DNA from: a virus
Lineage: Duplodnaviria; Heunggongvirae; Uroviricota; Caudoviricetes; Crassvirales
Strand: one strand, 5' to 3'
Length of the DNA stretch: 39,850 bases
IMG/VR virus record: IMGVR_UViG_3300035498_000265
Span: 64,001-103,850 of that record
Both the position numbers and the translations under genes were made by a program. The notes under the pieces were generated by a model. The model made no database searches, was not told where the DNA came from, and saw only the letters and a program-made list of their open reading frames with translations. Position 1 is the first letter of the stretch; every line of letters starts with the position of its first letter. Shown here piece after piece: positions 3,101 through 39,849 of this stretch.

Positions 3101-6100
3101 TATAGGGCCTAGAGTAGGATGCCTCTAACCAAATTCCTATAACTATTGAGGAGATAATGATACTCCTGCTATAGGGCCTAGGGTATCTACATCCTTAGTA
3201 GCTAAGTCGTCATAGATTAAATCCATCGTATTTTTATAGATAGCTCTATTAATAGCATTTTTCCTAGATGCAGATAAATCAGTAGTAAAATTAAGGAAGT
3301 CCTACGGATTTTCTTGGATAGCATCTAGTGAGTATTTATTGTTGGAGAGCTCATCTTGTAGTTTGGCGAGCTCCTAGATATATGTTTCTCCTTGGGGGCC
3401 TATGTTTTTCTTAAACTCAGCTATTTCCTTCTGCTATTCTGCAGAGTACATAGTTGGGTTATTAATCATATCATCTATCACCCTAGCATCAGTAGACAGA
3501 CCTTCCTAAGCTGATAACAATCTACTATCCTCTATAGCTGAGACACCTCTATTAAGCTCTGATATTTGTCTATCAGTTGCTTTTATAGCCATTCTAGTAT
3601 CAGTAGCATCTTTATTCAACTACTTAATAGCAGCTTCGTCAGTCTCTGTCTCTAGCTTCTCTTGAATAGATTTAAGTTTATCCTATTTAGCTCTCTATTG
3701 TTCTTTAGCAACCCTAATAAGTTCTCTAGCAGAGTCTACATGATTCTATTTATGAGAGTCTTCCATCTCACCATAAGAACCATCCTTCTCAGAGTCTATA
3801 TTTAAGTTAATGTCTTTAGCTAACTATTGAATATCTCTAGATATTCTTTTATTCTTAGCCATTAACTCTGCTCTTTGAACTAATATAGGATAATTCTTCT
3901 CATCTTCAAATGACCTATCTTGTTCTCTTAAACTCTATTCAGCTTCATTATAATCATTAACAAAGTCACTAGTTCTCTTAGCTACAGTTTGAATTTCCTA
4001 CCAAGCCTAATCTCTCTAGGCATCAGTAATAGGAGCTTGTTTATTAGCCTAATTAGTGCTTAAAGCCTATGTTATTAATGTGTTCTTCTCTTCATCAGAC
4101 ACATTGTCATTAGCTATATCTTGTAATTTTTGAATGTTAGCTTGATTAACTTGATTACTAAATTGATGTAGAGGATTACTACTTAGCTATTTCTAGTTCC
4201 ATACTAGTTTCATAGCTAAAACATCCTAGGCATTAGCTGCTGCTGAGAAATCTTGTGAGTTTTGAGATGCTTGGCCATTTACTATAGCTTGGTTAAGTAC
4301 TCCTAGTTCTGATAGTAGTTGCTCTCTTTCATCAATAGCTTTGTTATATTGACTCATCTACTCAGCCTAGGCTTTCATAACCATTCTAGCTTGCTCATAC
4401 TCACCTACTGCACCTGTTACATAGGTATTAAACCACTGTCTAAAACCTCTAGTTTTCTCCATGAATTCACTAGATTTTTCACCAGCTTCTTCCCTAGCTT
4501 TGTTTTCCCTAGCATAGTCCTCTTTCATCTTTTTATAGCCACCTAGTCTAGGAGCAAAGATACCACCAAGAGCACCTATTTCAAATGCGTGAGCAGCCTA
4601 TTCAGTTAAACCTGCATGAACAGCACCTTCAACACCAGAGTGAATAGCATCCATGTACTCACCTATTGCACTACCACCATGCCAAGTATTAGCATAGGCT
4701 TGTGGGTTATACTGTCTTAAGTACTCAGAGTTAAACTCACTTAGACCAAAACCTGCTGCAAAACCAGTAGTTAGTTCATCAGTATAGTTACTCCAACCAC
4801 CAGATACTAGAGCATTCCTAGCTACATTGTAACTACCTATGACTTTAGGATTAACAGTAGTCCACTTCTTAATACCTAGTAAAGATTTACCTTTATTAGT
4901 GAATTTACCTACAGCATCCTGAGTCATCTTACCATAGGTATTAGTTGCTACCTCTGATTGTAATACTTTCTCAGGCGCTTTAAATACTTTAAGTGGTTGT
5001 AAAGCTGCATTCAGCATACCATACTTAAGATACTCACCTGCAAAGCTAGTCATATAAGAGTCTACAGCAGCTCCCTATGCTAGTCTTTCTAAGTCATCTC
5101 CTCTTTGGTCGGCCATCTTTTTTTGCAACTCAGCATACTTAGCCTAATCATATTGCTGTTTGAAATAAGCTCTATATTCTGGAGTATCTACTGTCATACT
5201 AGTTTTACCCTCAGCACTTTTCTTAATACCTAGAGTTTTTCTATATGCTTTCTCAAGCTCCTGATTATATTCATCAGTAGCTGATAACTTCATAAACTCA
5301 TTATTAACATCATCTTGTAGGTATTGTTGAGCTTGCTATTTAGCAGCATTATAAGTCTATTGATAAGCACCATAGGCATAAGATTGAGCTATAGGAGCAG
5401 CAGATAGAGTAGCATCTTTCATACCTCCTAGTGTAGCTTTAGCAGCACCTTTAGATAATAATGCCTTAGCTCCTCCTTTAGATACTAGTGAAGCTAGGGA
5501 CTCATAGGTAGAAGGGCCTCCAGCCAACCACATAGAAGCTGCTTGACCAACTACTTGAGCAGTCATACCTGATATATCTTGTAGAGTCCCTAATGACCAA
5601 AAATCTGGGCCACTCTAACCTGGCTTTAAGACATACATCTCATTACCTGATACACCATTATTAGCTTCAGCCTATTGTTGTTCCTTCTATGACCAAGTGT
5701 TATATTGGTCTACTTTATTAAGATAATCATCCCTTAACCAGAATAAACCACCATTATCAGACAGTGATTTAAACCCTGATTCCTCAGGAGTTTTGCCCTA
5801 TAAATTCTTACCCGTAGATATGACACTAGCTAATTCACCAAAGGCATTAGACTCACCCTCATGACCTGTTAAATCACCTATTATAGAGCTAGTAATATTA
5901 CCTAGTTCTGCTAATCCCCATACACCAAAGCTTAGCATCCTAGGAGCTACATTATCAACAACTGTATGAGCAAAGTTCCATCCAGTTTCCCAGCTTCTTT
6001 TAAAGAATCCTAGGTTATCACTCACAAAAGTTTGCATCTCATTATCTAAGTACTAGTCAGCTTTCTATTTACCAAATAATTGTTCATAAGCTTTATACTT

Positions 6101-20763: not shown

Positions 20764-20788
20764 ATGTGTATAAATTAAAAATCTTGCA

Positions 20789-20819
20789 CAAAGATAAGTA
20801 AAATTTATCAATTATGCAA
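20789..20819 (-). promoter_or_regulatory. Bacteroidota-type sigma promoter
   Basis: Minus strand TTG-N20-TATCTTTG, 25 nt upstream of ATG 20763. Confidence 0.7.
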
Positions 20820-20843
20820 GATTATAACTATTTTTATTGTATG

Positions 20844-21083
20844 TTAAACACAAGCTTCTTTACAACTAGTATATGGGATTAAACAGTTACTTCCCCATAG
20901 ACAGTTGACAGCTTTACTAACTATTAATTGTTCATCCTAGTCTAAGTCAAACTCCTATAGAATCTCTTGTATATATAAGAATGCTAGTAAGTATTCTACA
21001 TAGCCATACTTAACATAACCAGCCTAAGATAACCTATTAAAGTACCTTTGTAAAGCCTAATAGGATTGATTAGTTAAGTCCAT
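20844..21083 (-). CDS. Small conserved virion protein, probable tail hub B-like, 79 aa (TAG=Gln)
   Basis: MDLTNQSYQALQRYFNRLSQAGYVKY...NCLWGSNCLIPY; Cys-containing; name assigned by synteny. Confidence 0.6.
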
Positions 21084-21635: not shown

Positions 21636-22637
21636 TTATTTAACTTCTTGAACTGTTAATCCAGAAACAGATTCCAATTTAGTTACTAGAGAAGTCATAA
21701 CAGCAGACTCTGCTACAATAGTTAAGTCCTTCTCAGACTTTTGTGGATTTTCACCAGCTCCTTCATAGTAGTAGTGAATATCTAGTGAATCATATTCCTT
21801 AGATTCATCAACCAGGTAAGTAGTTGGAACTACAACAGGCCAACCTACATTCCTATAAATATCACCTCTTTCACCCATGCAGAAGTACTCAAGGTCTGCG
21901 ATTTTCTTACCATCACCAATTACAGCATATTCTTCTGTATCTACTTTACCAGTAGCCTCATTGATATTACCCCAAATAACTTCATCACCTTCATAGGTAA
22001 CAGTTGTTGGAACTATATCAAAGTATACAGGAACTTGTGCTTTAATACCTCTAGTCCAATCCTGCTCAAGCTCCTCAATGATTACACCAGTAGCTTCATC
22101 AGCAAGGTCTGATTCCTTAGTAAGAGGAGTGACTTCAGTATCACCAATCTTAAATCTTAGAAGAGCAACAGGTTCTCTACTAAAGTTCTTAGCTAGAGAG
22201 ATAGCCAATCTCTTATAGAAAGTAGAAGCAGTCATACCAGATACAGCGTGAACCATACCATATTTGATGTAAGAGTCTTCATCAGACATACCTGCAAATT
22301 GATGGATAATAATTCTTAGGATATAATCTTGTCCAGGAATTAGTTCACCACCATTAACTTCTGAGTTAAGAGTTACTGTGCCTCTTTGAAGACTAGTAGC
22401 TAGCTTACCAGCAGGAGTCTTTTTAATGCAAACTACTTTATTAATATCAATAAGGTCTGACCTAGTTCTGCCACCAGCTCCTTGATACTCAAAATATAGA
22501 TGCTGCTTTTTAGTATCAGCTGAAGGAAGAATAGCACCTACAGTAGTTTCTTTCATTCTTTTAGTTGTAGCATCAGCAGTACCTAGTGCCTTTGCAACAT
22601 AAAGGTGTCTTACTTGATTTGTGGAAAAATTTCCCAT
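21636..22637 (-). CDS. Auxiliary capsid (decoration) protein, 333 aa
   Basis: Intact ORF MGNFSTNQVRHLYVA...IADLEYFCMGERGDIYRNVGWP; no TAG; followed by a terminator, as expected for a high-copy protein. Confidence 0.75.
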   Translation of the reverse strand: MGNFSTNQVRHLYVAKALGTADATTKRMKETTVGAILPSADTKKQHLYFEYQGAGGRTRSDLIDINKVVCIKKTPAGKLATSLQRGTVTLNSEVNGGELIPGQDYILRIIIHQFAGMSDEDSYIKYGMVHAVSGMTASTFYKRLAISLAKNFSREPVALLRFKIGDTEVTPLTKESDLADEATGVIIEELEQDWTRGIKAQVPVYFDIVPTTVTYEGDEVIWGNINEATGKVDTEEYAVIGDGKKIADLEYFCMGERGDIYRNVGWPVVVPTTYLVDESKEYDSLDIHYYYEGAGENPQKSEKDLTIVAESAVMTSLVTKLESVSGLTVQEVK

Positions 22638-22667
22638 TTTTTATTACGGTTTAATTAAACAATAATT

Positions 22668-23372
22668 TTATTTACCTGCAGCTTTACTCTTGATAGCTAA
22701 CTCAACTGCCATCTCAAGTATAACTCTATGTATTGCAGGATTTAATTTACATTCACTTTTGTTACTTTGATTATCTATAGATAGATTATCAGGTAAATCT
22801 ATTAGTATTATAGGACTAGGTTTAGATACATATCTAACCTAGTACTAGTCTATATTATACTTAGAAATAATCTCTACTATATTATCATCAATATCTAATC
22901 TTAGTGCTCTCCTTTTATTAGAATTCTTAAAGGGGTTTCTATTTATCCTAAAGTACTCATCCTAAGTTACTGGGACTACTAAGATAGTGTTACCATTATA
23001 GCAACCTGCACTTTCATCATCTAGATGAACCTATTCATAGGTTATAAATAACAGGTCATCAGGTAACTTAAAGAAAGAAGAATTAGAGCTTAATTTAGTG
23101 TCCTCTAAATCTTGTTTATCAGTTATAATAGAAGTCTTAACTAAGTTATTTAAATACTTTCTAAGCTCCTCTGTTTTCTCAAAGGAATCCCCTAGTAATT
23201 TACCATTGTATAAAGAGATAACTATACTCTCCTAAGCCTTTGTTAGAAATAGTGATTTCTCATATTCATCTAACACTATATCAGCTCTAGAATGAGTGTC
23301 ACCAAACTCTGACACATTATTATAACTATTTAGAAGAGTATCAAATTCACTGCTAAATTCTTCTATTGTCAT
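22668..23372 (-). CDS. Tail ring protein, 234 aa (TAG=Gln; absent from ORF track)
   Basis: MTIEEFSSEFDTLLNSY...LDEYEKSLFLTKAQ...PVTQDEY...NPFK...YVSKPSPIIL...ECKLNPAIHRVILEMAVELA; clear paralogue of the upstream gene. Confidence 0.8.
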
Positions 23373-32339: not shown

Positions 32340-32537
32340 TTACTTATTATTAGACTAATCAGATTCACTAGGTCTCATATAATCAACTGAAACTAGGTAA
32401 GGCTCCCACTTACCATTTTTGAACCTATGTATAACCTTGATGTCACCAGTCTTTGTATCTTTATCTACCCATAGAACATCTGTTCTAGTAGGAGCTAAAT
32501 GAGATTCATATAAATTATTGAGGATTAACTTTTTCAT
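32340..32537 (-). CDS. Hypothetical protein, 65 aa (TAG=Gln)
   Basis: ORF-track fragment plus QSNNK to TAA 32340. Confidence 0.6.
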
Positions 32538-32904
32538 CTCCCGTCATATTTAATGTTGAATAATCTTTATTCCTTATCTGACAGCTTAAATCTGTACAGA
32601 TAGTAGTAGTAATTTTAAGTACTTGGTCTTTCAAGGTATCTATTTCTCTCTTCAGTTGTTTGTTTTCTTGCATGAGTTCTTCCATGGACTATCTTAAGTG
32701 TTCATTGTCCTCGAGAGCTTTATTCAACCTAGCTGTGGTATCATCACTAAGTTTCTCATAAAACTCTAGAGACTTCTACATGTTCTCTATAAGATTTCCA
32801 TCAACCTCACTATTATATTTCTTCCTAGCAAAAACCCAACTAGTCCATCCACTTATAATAGAAGTGATTACTCCTACTCCTCCCGTAATAAGTATCTCTG
32901 TCAT
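32515..32904 (-). CDS. N-terminal TM plus coiled-coil protein (holin or inner-membrane spanin candidate), 129 aa (TAG=Gln; absent from ORF track)
   Basis: MTEILITGGVGVITSIISGWTSWVFARKK then heptad-rich region and TICTDLSC. Confidence 0.65.
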
Positions 32905-32934
32905 AATATATTAGTGTTAAGAATTATCTGTTCT

Positions 32935-33057
32935 ACCAAGGATGGCTCTTGGTTAGAGTTGAGGAGGCTAGCATTAGCATTAACATTACTGTAACTCATA
33001 CTGAAGTTGCTAACTCCATTGTTACAATAGTTATAGTCACTACTAATGAGCTTATTT
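32935..33057 (-). other. Non-coding TR-like orphan sequence
   Basis: AAC/AAT-rich register (SSDYNYCNNGVSNFSMSYSNVNANASLL), same 10-nt 5' leader AAATAAGCTC as the real TR, 3' hairpin ACCAAG-agccatc-CTTGGT; no ATG-initiated ORF. Confidence 0.45.
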
Positions 33058-33070
33058 AAGTTTAACTCAG

Positions 33071-33469
33071 TTAGTTATTCTATTTGGTTTTTACCTTTTT
33101 ATATATCTCATAAGCTACTAGTACTAGTGATATACCACCTAGATACATCAATAGTTTCTAGTACCATCTAAGCTTATTAACTTCCTATGTTATAGTAGTT
33201 TTAACCTCAATAGGGACTTCTATAGAGTCAGTCTTTACAACGGTGTCTGTCCTATTTAGATATTTATAAATGTACTTATATTTATATTGATAAACAGTAT
33301 CACCTGATATATATCTATCAATACTATCATGTACAAATATACTATCTCTATACAGTTGATTAATATATTCAATTCTTACAGTCTCAACTGGAACCTCTTT
33401 CTCAATAGTCCTAGTTGATGTACATGATACACATATAAGTAGTAATATTGCTATCAATAGTTTTCTCAT
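33071..33469 (-). CDS. Lipoprotein with C-terminal TM helix (spanin candidate), 132 aa (TAG=Gln)
   Basis: Signal peptide II lipobox LLLICVS|C16; read-through of two TAGs adds LLMYLGGISLVLVAYEIY and a basic tail. Confidence 0.7.
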
Positions 33470-33475
33470 ATCTAC

Positions 33476-33961
33476 TTATTTTAGTAACTCTGAATACTCT
33501 TCCCAGTTGACAGCATCCTTAGCTTCCCAACCCTTAGACAGAGTCTCATTAATAAACACTAGAGCTTTAAAGTAAAAATCTTTAAGGTCATCTAGGCTTT
33601 CAAATTTATAATAAACAGGGTTATCAGTAGTACCTAGTTTAAATGTAGGCAATGTTTCACCATTGCTTTGAACAGCTATATCATAAGCTGCTTTATAATT
33701 AAACTGATTCTCCATAGATAACCATACTGGGATTTCTTTCCAAGTAAATCCTGTTAGTATCTCTTTGTCAATCTCTGCATTAAACCAGCTCAATATTACT
33801 TCTTTTATCTCAGCTAGACTTGGCTTATGTTCAAAGTTCTCTGATAAATAAGATGAATTACCTTCCTCATCAGTTTCCTTATTCCAAGTTATCATCCATA
33901 TATCTCTGATATAATTTGTACATTGTACTGGGTCTGCAACTCCATGTATCTTTATTGCCAT
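33476..33961 (-). CDS. Hypothetical protein (DUF4376-like), 161 aa
   Basis: Intact ORF with GFTWKEIPVWLSMENQFNYKAAYD motif; start overlaps the RT stop. Family name recalled, not searched. Confidence 0.6.
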   Translation of the reverse strand: MAIKIHGVADPVQCTNYIRDIWMITWNKETDEEGNSSYLSENFEHKPSLAEIKEVILSWFNAEIDKEILTGFTWKEIPVWLSMENQFNYKAAYDIAVQSNGETLPTFKLGTTDNPVYYKFESLDDLKDFYFKALVFINETLSKGWEAKDAVNWEEYSELLK

Positions 33962-34932
33962 TTTATAAATGTATTAAATAAATTATGCCCATTGCAGTGA
34001 AGACAATAACCTTTAATAGAAGCTATAATCTCCTACCTTCTTCTCTTGCTCTTAAGATAAGATAATTTAACTTGAGCTTTCTTCTTGATTCTTTTTCTAA
34101 CTCTAGAGTAAGCACCATTGAAAGTAACAAAGCCTAGGTAGTCTAGACCTACATTAAGTGGAGATACTCTGTAATTGCTCTTGATTGTCAACTTACTATC
34201 TTTTAGTAAGTCCTTTACTATATTATGAATCTACCATAGATACTCTTTAGTTGGGCCTAATATTACAACATCATCACAATATCTATAGTAGAATTTAATT
34301 CTATATTTACATTTAAGAGGCATATCTAATAACCACCCTAAGAATAAATTACCAAACACCTAAGAAGCTCTTAAACCTATACTGAGACCCTTATCTAACA
34401 TATCAACGAAGTTATCTAGTATAGGTAATAAAGTCTTATCTTTAATATATCTCCTAATACATACCTTCATTAACTCATGGTCAATGTTATGATAGTATTT
34501 ATTAATATCTATCTTGTAGAAGTATTTAGCTTCTTCTGGATGGTTTCTTATGTCTCTCTATATAATAGACTTCAAGTACATTGTGCCTCTGCCTTTAATA
34601 CTTGAAGCTGTTGTGTATATCATTCTCTTTACTAATAAATCATCAAGTATAGTCATTATAGCATTTACTGCTATTCTGTCCCTATAGTTGATGATTTGAA
34701 TTTCCCTCTCTTTAGCACCCTCTTTAATAATCCTAGTATCATAAGTGCCAAGTCTAAAACTACCAGTCTATATAGCCTCAATAGTTTCTTTAATTACTTG
34801 GTCTTTATTGCTCATTATAAAATGAGCTTGCCTAGTCTTCTTTCTCTTAGTACCCCTGAGTACTACTTTAATACTTCTTTCAATGTTTTCAGGAGTACAA
34901 ATCAATTTGATTAAGTCATTATACCTATGCAT
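33952..34932 (-). CDS. DGR reverse transcriptase, 326 aa (five in-frame TAG; absent from ORF track)
   Basis: KEREI...YRDRI, SIKGRG, YFYKIDINKYYHNIDH, GLSIGLRASQ, YYRYCDD (34270-34281), GLDYLGF; adjacent to TR. Confidence 0.92.
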
Positions 34933-34980
34933 AAGGCCTCCTCTAATTTATGTGAATCTTGGTTATTAATTACTGTATTA

Positions 34981-35148
34981 TCTGGAAATTCTCTTACAGC
35001 TGCCTTGTTCACTATTAGCTACTAGAGGTTTCTGTAGATTTAACTTTTTTAGTTTTCCTATTATCAATGATAATAGCTTTTACTATGGCTCGTACCTCCT
35101 ATACCTATTAAAGTAATAGGTATAGTGTCTAATAGAGAAATTTCCAGA
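34981..35148 (-). ncRNA. Structured spacer between TR and RT (putative DGR RNA 3' domain)
   Basis: Hairpins at 35099-35125 (12 bp, 3-nt loop) and 35058-35076, enclosed by a 14-bp inverted repeat with one bulge (34981-34994 / 35134-35148). Confidence 0.55.
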
Positions 35149-35153
35149 GATTA

Positions 35154-35258
35154 TAACTGAGAGCCGTTGTTAGTGTTAGAATAACTAACTGAGTTATTAG
35201 CATTCAAGTAGAAAACTCTACTGTTCGCATTAGCGTTGTTGTTAGACTGCTTAAGAGC
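35154..35258 (-). repeat. DGR template repeat (TR)
   Basis: 105 bp, ungapped alignment to 35530-35634; 21 mismatches, all where TR has A on the coding strand; AAC/AAT-rich. Confidence 0.95.
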
Positions 35259-35394
35259 TTATTTTTTAAATAATTTCTTTTAAGTAGGTTTCAGCAACAG
35301 TAGCCATTTTCACTGAAAAACATAATGTTCTCCCGTTGTTGAGCTGAGGTACTATACCCAGTACTAAGCCAGATGCCTGACCTAATACTGGGTA

Positions 35395-35426
35395 CAAAGG
35401 TAAGAAAAATTTTTGAATTATGCAAA
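35395..35426 (-). promoter_or_regulatory. Consensus Bacteroidota promoter driving TR and RT
   Basis: Minus strand TTTG-N20-TACCTTTG, a full consensus match, between the target stop codon and TR. Confidence 0.75.
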
Positions 35427-35454
35427 TATATAAGTAATTTATTTATACTTTATA

Positions 35455-38400
35455 TTAATTTTCTCTTATTTCTGTGAGATTCAGGTAGAAATCTATGTCT
35501 GATGTTTCTACTATATTACCCCTGAAAATCAACCGAGAGCCGTAGTTAGTGCTAGAATAACCAACCGAGTTATCAGCATTCAAGCAGAAAACCCCACCGG
35601 ACGCACCAGCGAAGTTGGAAGACCGCCTAAGAGCCCTTGTAGAAGCCCAAGTGCTTCTTAAGGTAGTATCAGAACTTTGATAGTCACAGTAGCCTTTAAC
35701 AGTACCACCACCAGAGGTACTACAACTACAAATATCACAATACTTACCATGGACAACAGCCTGGGGATAATTACCTGATGGGCCTACAAAGTAGACTCTT
35801 CTAGTAGATAAGTCTGGTTGAGTTATTCTCAGCTTACCACAGTTAGCAGAAGTCTCATTAGCCATAAATACTCTATCCATCCACTCTCCGGCATTACCCT
35901 GAATGTTCTCAAGACCTAGGAATACAGGAACTTCTATATTAGTGTAAGAGATTACACCACTTGAAGAAGTTACTGGGATAGAGGCATTAGCCCAAGTTTC
36001 AGCAGTAGCTATACTTGTTGGTATAGTAGTATCAGTCATACCATATTGTCTTGAAGCACCTAACTTTCTACCAGTAGTAGATGAGCCAGCACCTAAAACA
36101 TTTTGAGAGTTCCTTCTACCATACTTAGCAGTAAACAACATAGCTATTAGCTTATCAGCTTCATAGTCTACTAGTTGTAAACCTCTTGAGTAAGCAGCCT
36201 CACTAAGACTGTGCTAGAACCAGTCACCTTTAACATTAATATCAGCTACATCTTTACCTAGAGTTCCTACAGCAGCTGTCTTAGTTCCATTGAAAGAAGT
36301 ATAAACAGTTAATGAGTCATCTGAAGAAAGCTCAGAAGCAGCTATACAAACAGGCTCTGAATAAACCCAATCAGGCTCCATATCAGCAATCCAGTCCTTA
36401 GCATTCTCTGCAGTCATCTCTTCACCACTATTAAACTTACTTCCTTTATGTAGTACAATGTCACAAGGGTCAGCTGTAATAGAACCTGATACATATTTAG
36501 GAACACCTATGTAGAACCACTTAGCTCCTGAGGGAACAGTTACAATAGCAGGCATACCATTATAAGCATATACACTTGATGATACATAGAACTCACCTAC
36601 ATTTTGTACAGTACCTTCAGTATTAGAAATAATCAAGCCATTAGCACCAGTGAATACACAGCAAGTTTGACCTACTGATAGTGGGTATCTAACCTTCTTA
36701 TAACCTTCAACATTTACCCTAACAATATCATAGCTACTATTAGAAGTAGAAGGAATCCTATCATCAATATAGTTAGCAGCATTAGTAAAGCTGATAACCC
36801 TACTTTCTTTATATAAGCCTTCAGCATCAGCATCTAAATCTATGGGAGAGGCTTTTAAGTCAGCTATTGTTAGAACTCTAGTCTCACTAGAAGTACTAGG
36901 CCTAGTTTCTTGTGAACTAAAACAAGTATATTTCCTACTTAGAGATACACTAGTTGGGCTAAGATAGTTAATACCTTTATACCAGAAACCTGGGAATTTA
37001 ACATAAACTTCACCATAACCACTAGATTGTAGACCAGATAGATTGGCTTCTCTTCTAGTTAAGGAAGAGCCATATCCTGTAGAGAAGTATCTACTATCAG
37101 TGTCTTCTAGCTGAATAACGTACATTGTACCACTCTTATCCCTGGCATTTAAATAAGCTTTATCAGTAGCCTTAGGATTAGTTTCAATCTAAACAGATTT
37201 ACCTTTAGTAACTACTTTACCTAGAACTCTATGGACTTTACTTAAGATGTTAGCAATATGACCAGAAGGTACATATCTAGTTGAGTTTCTAGCACCAGTG
37301 TTATTATCAAAGTTAGTGATATTGCCTTTAACTACAGTACCAGTTACATCTGAGAATCCTGATTCATCTGTAATAGATTCATCTGACTCTATGATTGTGT
37401 ACTCAGGTTGCTTAATAGTTAGACTAGTAAACTTGCTACTATACTCTTTAACTATGTCATCATCAGTGTAAGTGGGAAGTTGTAAAGTACCTACTAATTG
37501 AGCACCAGTAGTAACCTAGTTGCCATCCTCATCAAGACCATAGTAGTCTGTGAATTGGTCTAGCCAAGTAATACTATCTTCTCTGTCAATGCCAGTTATT
37601 CTCAAATACTTAGTTGCTGCATTGCTTGATTTAAGCTTCTCAAATAAGCTCTCCCAATTAATATTAGGACAATCATTAACAAGAAGTTCACTTAATTGTG
37701 ACCAATCTTGAGCAGTTAAAGTATCTGAGTCTGAGTTATTATATTGAAGTAAATTTAGATTAGATAGATATAATCCCTTAGGAGTTCCTAAGATTAGGTT
37801 CTCAATAGGGGCACCTGCAGCTAATCTAACTGAACTAATACTAGTACCTGATACATTTAAGTATTTAAGTTTACTAGCTTTATTCAAACCTGAGAGCCCA
37901 GTGAATGTAGAATTAGATAAATCTACATAGTTAATAAGAGGACAGTCAGTAATATAAATATTACCACTACCATTACTTCCCAGATTAGAAGCTACTAACT
38001 TCTATAGGTTAGTTAAACCATTAACATTAATAGTATCCCCAGTAGTAGCTTTCCAAGAACCTTCAGAATCAATATATAATTCCTTAATTCTAGAAGCACC
38101 TAATACATTAGCAGGGTTATTAGCAGCATTACCTGTAATCTCCATACTTACTGTATAGTTGTTAGTGCTGTCAGCTCTCTAGTGGTCTCTTATGCCTGTG
38201 TTAGAAGTTTTCCAAGCAAAGTAGTAAGGAATACTAGATACTATAGTTACTTTATTAGTTAAAGCTGCATCACCTACATAGATGAAGGCATCTTGTTCAT
38301 AGTTACCAGCTTGGTACTTAGAGTCAAGCAAGTTAAATCTGTTCTCTAGAGTATATGTCCTATGAGCTTCCCTAGAACCCTGTGCAGTACTAATAAAGTT

Positions 38401-39849
38401 AGTGCTAATATCTGAAGGATACCCTGTCTCAGTTAAAGGGGTAATATATTTATATTTTTGTGAGTAGTTATACTGCCTTTGACTCCAGTTATTTACATAC
38501 TGACCATTAAAGATTTCTTTGAAGTAATCTGCACTGAATTTACCAGAGCTTCTCATTAACTTACATACACTAGATAAGTTAATAGCAGTCTTAGTATCTA
38601 CTACACTGTCAATAACTCTTTGAGTTGAGAAGTTAGCTCTAATTAAGTACCATAACCAGCTATCATGACCTTGTAGAGCATATTGACCTACACCATAGTC
38701 ATAAGTAGTTCTATCAGTTAGGTAATCATAAGCTAAGTAACAGTCATTCCTCTCACCTAATACTGTATCACCATCATAGTACTAGAACATCCAGTGAGTA
38801 CCATCCATAGTGTACATCATCATATTCTTAGCTCTTTGGTCAACAGCTAATAGATAGTCTGTCCACAGATACCAAGCGCAAACACTACTTAGGTTAAAGT
38901 AATCCTAGACATTGTTAATAAAGTATTCACAAGTCCAGTCAAGAGCTTCAAAGTCCTCAGACTTCATTGAGTTAAGGTCATAAGCTTTCTTACCATTAGC
39001 AGTAGCTACTTCCTTAGCACAAGTACCAATGAAGTTAAATACTCTCTTCAATTGTGTTGGTACATAAGCATATTGCTCAAACCCAGATGTAGTAGCTAAG
39101 CTATCAATACCATAATCAGCAGCTTGGTCAGTTACATCTGCAGGGGCTCTTACTTCTAGTTGATTTGAGAAAGCATCACTAGGATAAGTACTAGCTTCAT
39201 CAATGGCATCCCTTGTAGTAAATTTAATATGGAATAAGTCAAGGTCGGCGTTGTTATCAAGGAATTCAACACATATTGGTTGATAACTACCATCTTTATT
39301 ATAAGTACCATCTGCATCGTACTTATAGGCACCATCAAAACCAAAGACTTCACCTGAGCTAGATTTATCATTGTTAAAGTTATACTGACCCATGTATTGA
39401 AGATTAACATAGTTGCTATCTTCAAGAGTGTCAGTATAATCAGGGTTAACAACAGAGTCTGCAGCAAATACATCAATAGGAAATCCCTCAATAGCTACTC
39501 TAGTCTTAATATCATTAACACTAGTTTTATACTCTCTAGTCTGAGCTGGGTTCCTCAGTGACTCTACATTCTTAGTAAGTTCATTGAATACCATAGCACC
39601 AGCTGTGTTATGAGTCATTGAAGAGTCCACATAGTCAACCTTAAGACAGCAAATAGGAACCTCAACAGCATTCTAGCTCATAGCATACTTGAAGTTGTCT
39701 TTAACTTCACCACCAACTATGAATGAGCCTGCAGCAGGTTTTTCACTCTTAGTCTTTTTATTGAAGTTAATTCTATAGTTTTTCCTAGGTCTCTTAGTAG
39801 AAGTAGTACCCTGGATTCTTATAGCAGCTTCAGTGTGAGTAAAGTTAAA
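35455..39849 (-). CDS. Giant DGR target / putative receptor-binding protein (partial, >1460 aa): CotH-kinase-like, LRR-like and C-terminal C-type lectin domains (TAG=Gln)
   Basis: Five fragments in one frame separated only by TAG (8 in the window); open at the window edge. RIQGTTSTKRPRKNY, GQYNFNNDK, DQRAKNMM...YYDGDT; LxxLxL periodicity at about 37650-38100; GNAGEW and VR at the C-terminus. Confidence 0.8.
35530..35634 (-). repeat. DGR variable repeat (VR)
   Basis: Encodes ALRRSSNFAGASGGVFCLNADNSVGYSSTNYGSRL, a C-type-lectin-fold VR signature, 25 codons from the end of the gene. Confidence 0.95.

Follow-up and report, generated by a model that had tools for sequence, protein, structure and literature searches.

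A 20-nt stretch antisense to a DGR template in the leader of a second template repeat of a crAss-like phage

How does a crAss-like gut phage come to carry, beside a lysis gene, a short and perfect antisense copy of part of the template repeat of its own DGR, and might such a copy take part in the work of the retroelement? The locus that raises this question lies in a window of 39,850 nucleotides, the whole stretch of DNA analysed here, which takes up bases 64001-103850 of a virus record; the record is 103,850 bp long and has direct repeats of 127 nt at its termini. In its lysis gene the phage is similar to crAss001-type Bacteroides phages. The genes appear broken up when translated with the standard code; a reading of TAG as glutamine lets them cover the minus strand one after another, and all features of the locus are read on this strand, referred to here as gene sense. 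The order in gene sense is TR1, the RT-3 spacer, the reverse transcriptase (RT) gene, a DUF4376-like gene, a spanin-like gene, a non-coding stretch of 166 nt and a holin/Rz-like gene (Table 1).

Table 1. Coordinates of the features discussed; positions are those of the window unless a sequence name is given (G000, the whole virus record)
Feature	Position	Strand	Comment
Target gene 1	35455..39681	-	1408-aa tail-fibre-like protein, TAG=Gln reading
VR1	35531..35634	-	3' end of target gene 1
Bacteroides-type promoter-like motif TTTG...TAnnTTTG	~35394-35430		just upstream of the 35164-35377 stretch
RNA-library contig match, TR1 and its leader	35164..35377	-	0 differences
TR1	35155..35258	-	104 nt; direct repeat with VR1, 81% identity
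Partner segment inside TR1	35177..35196	-	encodes N-S-V-S-Y-S of the template frame
Spacer RNA between TR1 and RT	34995..35127	-	member of Rfam RT-3 (RF03068)
DGR reverse transcriptase	33952..34932	-	326 aa, five in-frame TAG codons
DUF4376-like protein	33476..33961	-	161 aa; beside RT in hankyphage-like phages too
Unimolecular-spanin-like ORF	33071..33469	-	132 aa; N-terminal lipobox, C-terminal TM segment
TR2 leader element (20 nt)	33063..33082	-	plus strand TAACTCAGTTAGTTATTCTA; gene sense TAGAATAACTAACTGAGTTA
TR2	32961..33053	-	93 nt; mismatches to VR2 all at TR2 adenines
Hairpin just 3' of TR2	32936..32952	-	CCAAG...CTTGG; read from sequences
VR2	G000:C1:23002-23094	+	outside the window, in a 205-aa standard-code ORF (G000 22597-23214, P0124)

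The surroundings of TR1 are those of a DGR. TR1 and VR1 differ at 20 positions, every one of which (20/20) is a TR1 adenine, and the adenines altered in the VRs amount to 20 of 34 for TR1 and 18 of 30 for TR2. A DGR-type reverse transcriptase stands beside this template: the encoded protein matches Pfam RVT_1 at 4.8e-14 and PHROG 1423 at 6e-78, and it is about 44% identical to the reverse transcriptases of hankyphage DGRs. In one relative, contigs that are 99.6-99.8% identical differ at 16-28 positions, 10-19 of which fall in VR1, and this concentration of the differences of near-identical contigs indicates that the DGR is active in this clade. The C-terminal 314 aa of target gene 1 gave no Pfam hit. 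The gap of 196 nt between the stop of the target gene and TR1 holds no Avd-size ORF, and the four neighbours scanned (RT, the DUF4376 protein, the spanin-like ORF and the holin-like ORF) showed no match to the Avd family; Avd is not universal among DGRs. The lipoprotein signal together with the C-terminal TM segment makes the 132-aa ORF a plausible unimolecular spanin. As a separate observation, hankyphage-like phages of about 40 kb (IMG/VR loci L029-L107) have the same pair of RT followed by DUF4376, with about 44% identity in RT and about 50% in DUF4376, and the DGR module is therefore common to crAss-like and hankyphage-like phages.

Only the first of the two templates has a recognisable spacer RNA. 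The RT-3 motif (RF03068) is a structured RNA found upstream of reverse transcriptase genes, and the spacer between TR1 and RT belongs to this family, scoring 42.8 bits against the covariance model (gathering score 40.5, E 4e-8); the 20-nt site falls outside this motif. In eight relatives scanned for it, a single RT-3 match per genome came up, in the interval from TR1 to RT; seven of the eight score 44-51 bits and so reach the gathering score, and L110 scores 29.8 bits. After TR2 no RT-3 match was obtained, in the window up to E = 1 (32400-35700 scanned) nor in the eight relatives. The sequence right after TR1 (TCTGGAAATTTCTCT, ~35120-35150, minus strand) is complementary to a stretch right before the RT start (AGAGAATTTCCAGA, 34960-34975), a pairing that resembles a closing helix around the RT-3 spacer and has similar counterparts in L109 and L113. 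Among the contigs of a gut metatranscriptome library, a single one matches the 3.3 kb compared; it covers TR1 and its leader and no other part, a weak hint at the RNA level. The promoter-like motif just upstream of this stretch has a 76% similar copy at 20788-20846. The 3' ends of the two templates are alike (GG-Y-TCTCA in TR1, RG-Y-CTCCTCA in TR2), a likeness that would suit one priming apparatus.

What, then, is the element next to the 20-nt site? The first-pass annotation had described it as a TR-like orphan with the site just upstream. The position is right and the orphan status is not, for the element has a remote VR. Scanning the whole genome with the 166-nt non-coding stretch, its adenines ignored, left one site without mismatch at non-A positions. 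The two segments have 18 mismatches in 93 nt, 18/18 of them at the adenines of the non-coding stretch, which is identified as TR2 because every mismatch to VR2 falls there. Judged by sequence, TR2 is a genuine, working-type second template repeat, and its VR2 lies about 74 kb away. The ORF that bears VR2 gave no Pfam hit. It sits in the early-gene arm of the genome, and among phages such a DGR target is unusual. Downstream of the 20-mer, 9 nt separate its end from the first base common to TR2 and VR2, and the 20-mer is therefore part of the TR2 leader; any model of the site must take in TR2 because the 20-mer is its 5' leader.

The relatives also keep the hairpin just 3' of TR2, with stems that differ: beside CCAAG/CTTGG of the window there are CCAAAG/CTTTGG, CTTCTG/CAGAAG and CTTTCAAG/CTTGAAAG, as read from the group of close relatives called REL here and from L113 and L109. 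In L012 just the 3' half of this hairpin is left. The heptamer GAGCCAT, common to the hairpin loop and the TR1 spacer, was considered as a shared signal and rejected, being not conserved in the relatives.

The central observation of the first-pass annotation holds in its details. The plus strand of the site is the exact reverse complement of TR1 positions 63-82. It follows the template and not the VR, whose copy of this segment (35553-35572) has G in place of two TR adenines and no other difference, and it overlaps the last sense codons (Q130-N-N) and the TAA stop of the spanin-like ORF in the TAG=Gln reading. The number of such repeats expected by chance, the check proposed along with that observation, places the match beyond chance in Markov shuffles, in the repeat ranking of the whole genome and against 84 other DGR loci. 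When the window was shuffled 150 times with a Markov chain, 2-3 of the shuffles (about 2%) had an inverted repeat of at least 20 nt anywhere; with one arm required to lie in the 104-nt TR, we infer a chance of about 1e-4. With the 127-nt terminal repeat set aside, no other exact repeat of either orientation in the 103,850-bp genome is as long, and the next in length measure 19 and 18 nt. For comparison, 84 unrelated DGR loci were searched for inverted exact matches of the TR to the surrounding 5-10 kb, and the longest were of 8-12 nt.

It could be argued that two constrained sequences, a TR1 segment coding for N-S-V-S and a stop-rich gene end, have come to match by accident, given that the sites of the window and of the REL group have stops in all three frames (TAACTAACTGA) and that chance repeats of 16-17 nt exist in the genome, for example a partial copy at G000 18497. 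The shuffle, genome-repeat and 84-locus statistics all speak against such an accident, as do the relatives: L114-L116 have lost the three-frame stop and kept the complementarity with a compensating change, and the site is found only together with this DGR. A chance match is accordingly extremely improbable. The same three lineages led us to reject the site as a three-frame stop signal, since their stops are gone and their complementarity is kept. A hairpin within the 20-mer (AATAACT/AGTTATT) was likewise discarded, being lost in relatives. An exact scan of IMG/VR for the 20-mer returned 0 loci.

Relatives were taken to be contigs with close homologues of the DUF4376 protein and RT. A single-protein RT search of IMG/VR gave no relatives, an alignment-based DUF4376 search gave one close locus (L028) together with many hankyphage-like loci without the feature, and a scan of JGI metagenomes gave three close loci only. 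In DGR-bearing relatives TR1, RT-3, RT, DUF4376 and spanin follow in the same order, and most of these genomes have the leader and TR2 at the same intergenic position. Site and TR2 are present in the window and in L016-L026, L028, L109, L111 and L114-L116; they are absent from L012/13, L014/15, L110, L112 and the bajarodcaudo virus. In this set the two occur only in genomes with a present or recent DGR of this kind. L110 and L112 have more distant DGRs. L012/13 lack RT, TR1 and the body of TR2, and the core of the site has decayed there, with flanks that are still recognisable in L012. A TR2-like element without any site is found in L113, and the site is therefore not indispensable, unless the TR2 of L113 is dead.

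Decay of the retroelement can be followed in several of these genomes. One common deletion in L014, L015 and L016 has removed TR1 and RT residues 1 to ~280, with VR1 and a C-terminal remnant of RT kept, and the three are fossil DGRs; L016 still has site and TR2, and L014/15 are without both. At the TR2 position of L109 (4872-5050) an adenine-poor, VR-like version of the element is found, and TR2 may here have been overwritten or inactivated. In the Logan contig L108 a G run replaces the TR2 body at 4856-4900, with A-to-G changes leading in; this is probably a two-colour sequencing artefact, and L108 was left out of the analysis.

Does the complementarity persist when the sequences change? Relatives with an intact site have an antisense match of 12-22 nt to their own TR1 at the same place. 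It measures 18 nt in the REL group against 20 in the window. L116 has 16 nt, one U-G-compatible mismatch and then 5 nt, with a distal arm of 12 nt; L115 has 11+5+6 nt with two bulges; L114 has 5+12 nt and a distal arm of 14 nt. In L109 the site is matched to its own TR1 at 17/20 positions, and in L028 a 4-nt deletion within the site has left 13 nt complementary. For most lineages, local alignment shows the match to be the core of an imperfect antisense copy, 45-60 nt long, of TR1 ~42-104. On the leader side this extended copy begins in the last spanin codons and continues up to TR2, and it takes in the 3' end of TR1; in most relatives those spanin codons form a distal arm of complementarity to the TR1 3' end. 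In the window the 20-nt core alone remains of it.

Four alignment columns have changed on both sides, in the site as well as in TR1. The first is a T to G change in CAGT(T/G)AG of L114-116, where GTT becomes GTG (a synonymous Val codon in TR1) and the site changes from A to C; the second is T to C in A(T/C)AAC of L109. The third concerns A/T after GTT, in which the window differs from the REL group and L114, and the fourth G/T at position -4, in which the REL group differs from L115/116. Pairing of sites with the TR1 of their own lineage beats permuted pairing (P = 0.016 for nine lineages, 0.036 for six groups and 0.008 for five groups), a modest support that comes from about five independent TR1 lineages. 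The alignment within the own group scores highest in three of the five TR1 groups, namely the window, REL and L114-116. Among five REL-type lineages the site varies at 0/18 positions, against 21-27% of the positions in the adjoining spanin codons, spacer and TR2. Mismatches in the helices comprise two that are wobble-compatible and about six others, without G-U enrichment, a ratio that does not discriminate between RNA pairing and DNA homology.

These results give a divided answer to the covariation check that came with the original proposal. Across lineages the site tends to track its own TR1; L111 is discordant. A diverged template with an unchanged site, named there as the combination that would refute antisense control, occurs in this one relative, which pairs a diverged TR1 with a REL-type site and has 12 nt complementary left. 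The conserved position and the tracking of the own TR1 nevertheless make a functional antisense relation to TR1 plausible.

The extended antisense copy invites another explanation, in which the 3' 60% of TR1 was duplicated in inverted orientation beside TR2 and the product is functionless, its similarity being due to occasional gene conversion between the inverted copies and to short divergence times. Such a relic is the main rival of the reading that we prefer; we regard it as rather unlikely, though it accounts for a good deal. Over its 45-60 nt the inverted repeat is imperfect and contains indels, unlike a clean helix; its mismatches are without wobble bias, and L111 and L113 manage without a good match. 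TR1 is near-invariant in the REL group (69/69), and conversion from TR1 could therefore account for the 0/18 of the site. Less easily explained in this way is the perfect 20-nt island of the window, which lies between flanks without homology and would be a poor substrate for conversion. Nor does the distal arm look like a duplicate: it falls in spanin codons for L-R-T that are homologous in the DGR-less L012, and because L012 has other synonymous codons for these residues the arm looks evolved, not duplicated. Moreover, loss of the DGR in L012 was followed by decay of the site between flanks that are still recognisable, and the site is better conserved than the adjoining TR2 and spanin sequence.

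The agreement of the site with TR at the two variable positions had also led the first-pass annotation to consider an inverted, unmutated scar of cDNA insertion. That origin is highly improbable. All six adenines of the 20-mer (6/6), and six in the 18-mer of the relatives, are unchanged, which leaves no signature of adenine mutagenesis; the region runs into pre-existing spanin codons, which are homologous in the DGR-less L012; and lineage-specific re-matching would require repeated insertions at one spot. As an inverted VR-like target of TR1 cDNA the site was rejected too, since it is without adenine-specific differences and without an IMH-like 3' end.

An element acting at the level of DNA seems quite unlikely, be it a pair of inverted repeats that flip the 2.1-kb segment of RT, DUF4376 and spanin or a near-palindromic protein-binding site. 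The repeats do bracket a discrete 2.1-kb module, and the core of both copies holds a 5+1+5 near-palindrome (TAACT-N-AGTTA). Inversion, however, would split TR1 and turn RT, the spacer and the spanin gene against the direction of transcription; all contigs of the window's own phage and of every relative have a single orientation, a comparison in which a rare inversion would escape notice, and no recombinase gene lies beside the segment. A palindrome by itself leaves the asymmetric matches of 16-22 nt, and the covariation outside it, unexplained.

The reading that we prefer, and hold tentatively, is that the TR2 leader and TR1 form an RNA duplex which couples or gates the use of the two templates. 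By its conservation, the 20-mer is apparently the best-kept core of the 5' leader of TR2. The leader would act as RNA, either within a read-through transcript that contains TR1, the RT-3 spacer, RT, DUF4376, spanin, leader and TR2 or in trans, and would pair with TR1 RNA. Such a duplex could tie the spacer-less TR2 to the TR1/RT-3/RT particle, could set the 5' limit of TR2 cDNA, and could mask TR1 while TR2 is in use, the masked part including the 3' initiation end in most lineages. The masking suggested in the first-pass annotation is contained in this reading, with TR2 placed at the centre. As an outcome, one reverse transcriptase would serve, or choose between, two targets. A more specific proposal, which appears doubtful to us, has one RT and one RT-3 serving two templates, with the antisense leader either recruiting TR2 or switching TR1 off; this template selector by RNA duplex would split mutagenesis between the tail fibre and a small early-region protein.

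Calculations with RNAduplex are consistent with a TR1 partner. For the TR2 leader of every site-bearing lineage, TR1 gives the strongest pairing (-27 to -55 kcal/mol), and the other regions tried (TR2 downstream and the RT-3 spacer) reach -10 to -31.5 kcal/mol; the extension of the window's helix to -52.7 kcal/mol, which RNAduplex obtains through scattered added pairs, is not credited. With regard to a common transcript, the first-pass annotation had seen no terminator between TR and the site. One terminator-like hairpin is present in the RT gene (34150-34130), and it is weak and no more than shuffles give. Several observations weigh against the preferred duplex: L111 is discordant, L113 has a TR2-like element without site, L028 has 13 nt only, the mismatches show no wobble bias, and gene conversion from a highly conserved TR1 would also keep the site invariant.

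To our knowledge, neither the use of several templates by a single DGR reverse transcriptase nor, beyond the Bordetella model, the licensing of template RNA has been explained. The locus offers a compact, sequence-defined candidate in this respect, a 20-nt leader partnered with another template. If the duplex is functional, RNA-RNA pairing can set template choice in a retroelement, which would explain how a remote early-region target about 74 kb off is served and would provide a way to multiplex or gate templates in DGR-based mutagenesis tools. If the site is a relic of gene conversion, it documents the origin of a second template beside the lysis gene in crAss-like phages.

Several known systems resemble parts of this arrangement. 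DGRs with more than one template have been described in the Zeta crAss-like phage Lera and ct1yV3, with three TR-VR pairs (PMC12386605), and in Stenotrophomonas sp. SKA14, with two TRs (PMC6642488). They share with our phage one RT, several TRs and targets in different genes, and they differ in that TR2 here stands behind two unrelated genes and without a spacer RNA; term searches of the two articles found no leader antisense to another TR. Full-text literature searches likewise brought up no account of such a relation between the leader of one TR and a second TR. An inverted repeat that belongs to a DGR is known from target recognition, in which a hairpin/cruciform downstream of VR is used (Guo et al. 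2011, PMC3240598). There a GC-rich stem-loop, local to the 3' end of VR, acts on the target DNA (PMC3240598), whereas the site described here belongs to a long-range complement, spanning 2.1 kb, with one arm in a TR and the other in the leader of a different TR.

The closest comparison is with the 'cPRT Stop' duplex of the Bordetella phage BPP-1 DGR, in which avd 369-379 is paired with Sp 59-70 (Handa et al., bioRxiv 10.1101/2023.10.23.563531). In that system a segment just upstream of TR enters a duplex that is essential for cis-primed cDNA synthesis and also stops synthesis, and stop-type duplexes with a mean of 13 bp are predicted in 207 of 278 DGRs (10.1101/2023.10.23.563531). The partners differ: in BPP-1 the second strand belongs to the spacer that follows the same TR, whereas the best partner found here with RNAduplex is inside TR1, 2.1 kb upstream, and not in a spacer that follows TR2. 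The phage site is furthermore without an identified stem-loop or A-minor adenosines, and its locus has no evident Avd gene. The two arrangements are alike in a short duplex (about 11-13 bp in BPP-1, predicted in the crAss-like phage), one strand of which lies a few nucleotides upstream of a template; with its distance of 9 nt from TR2, the crAss-like leader takes the same position relative to the template that follows it, and the length of its match is similar or greater.
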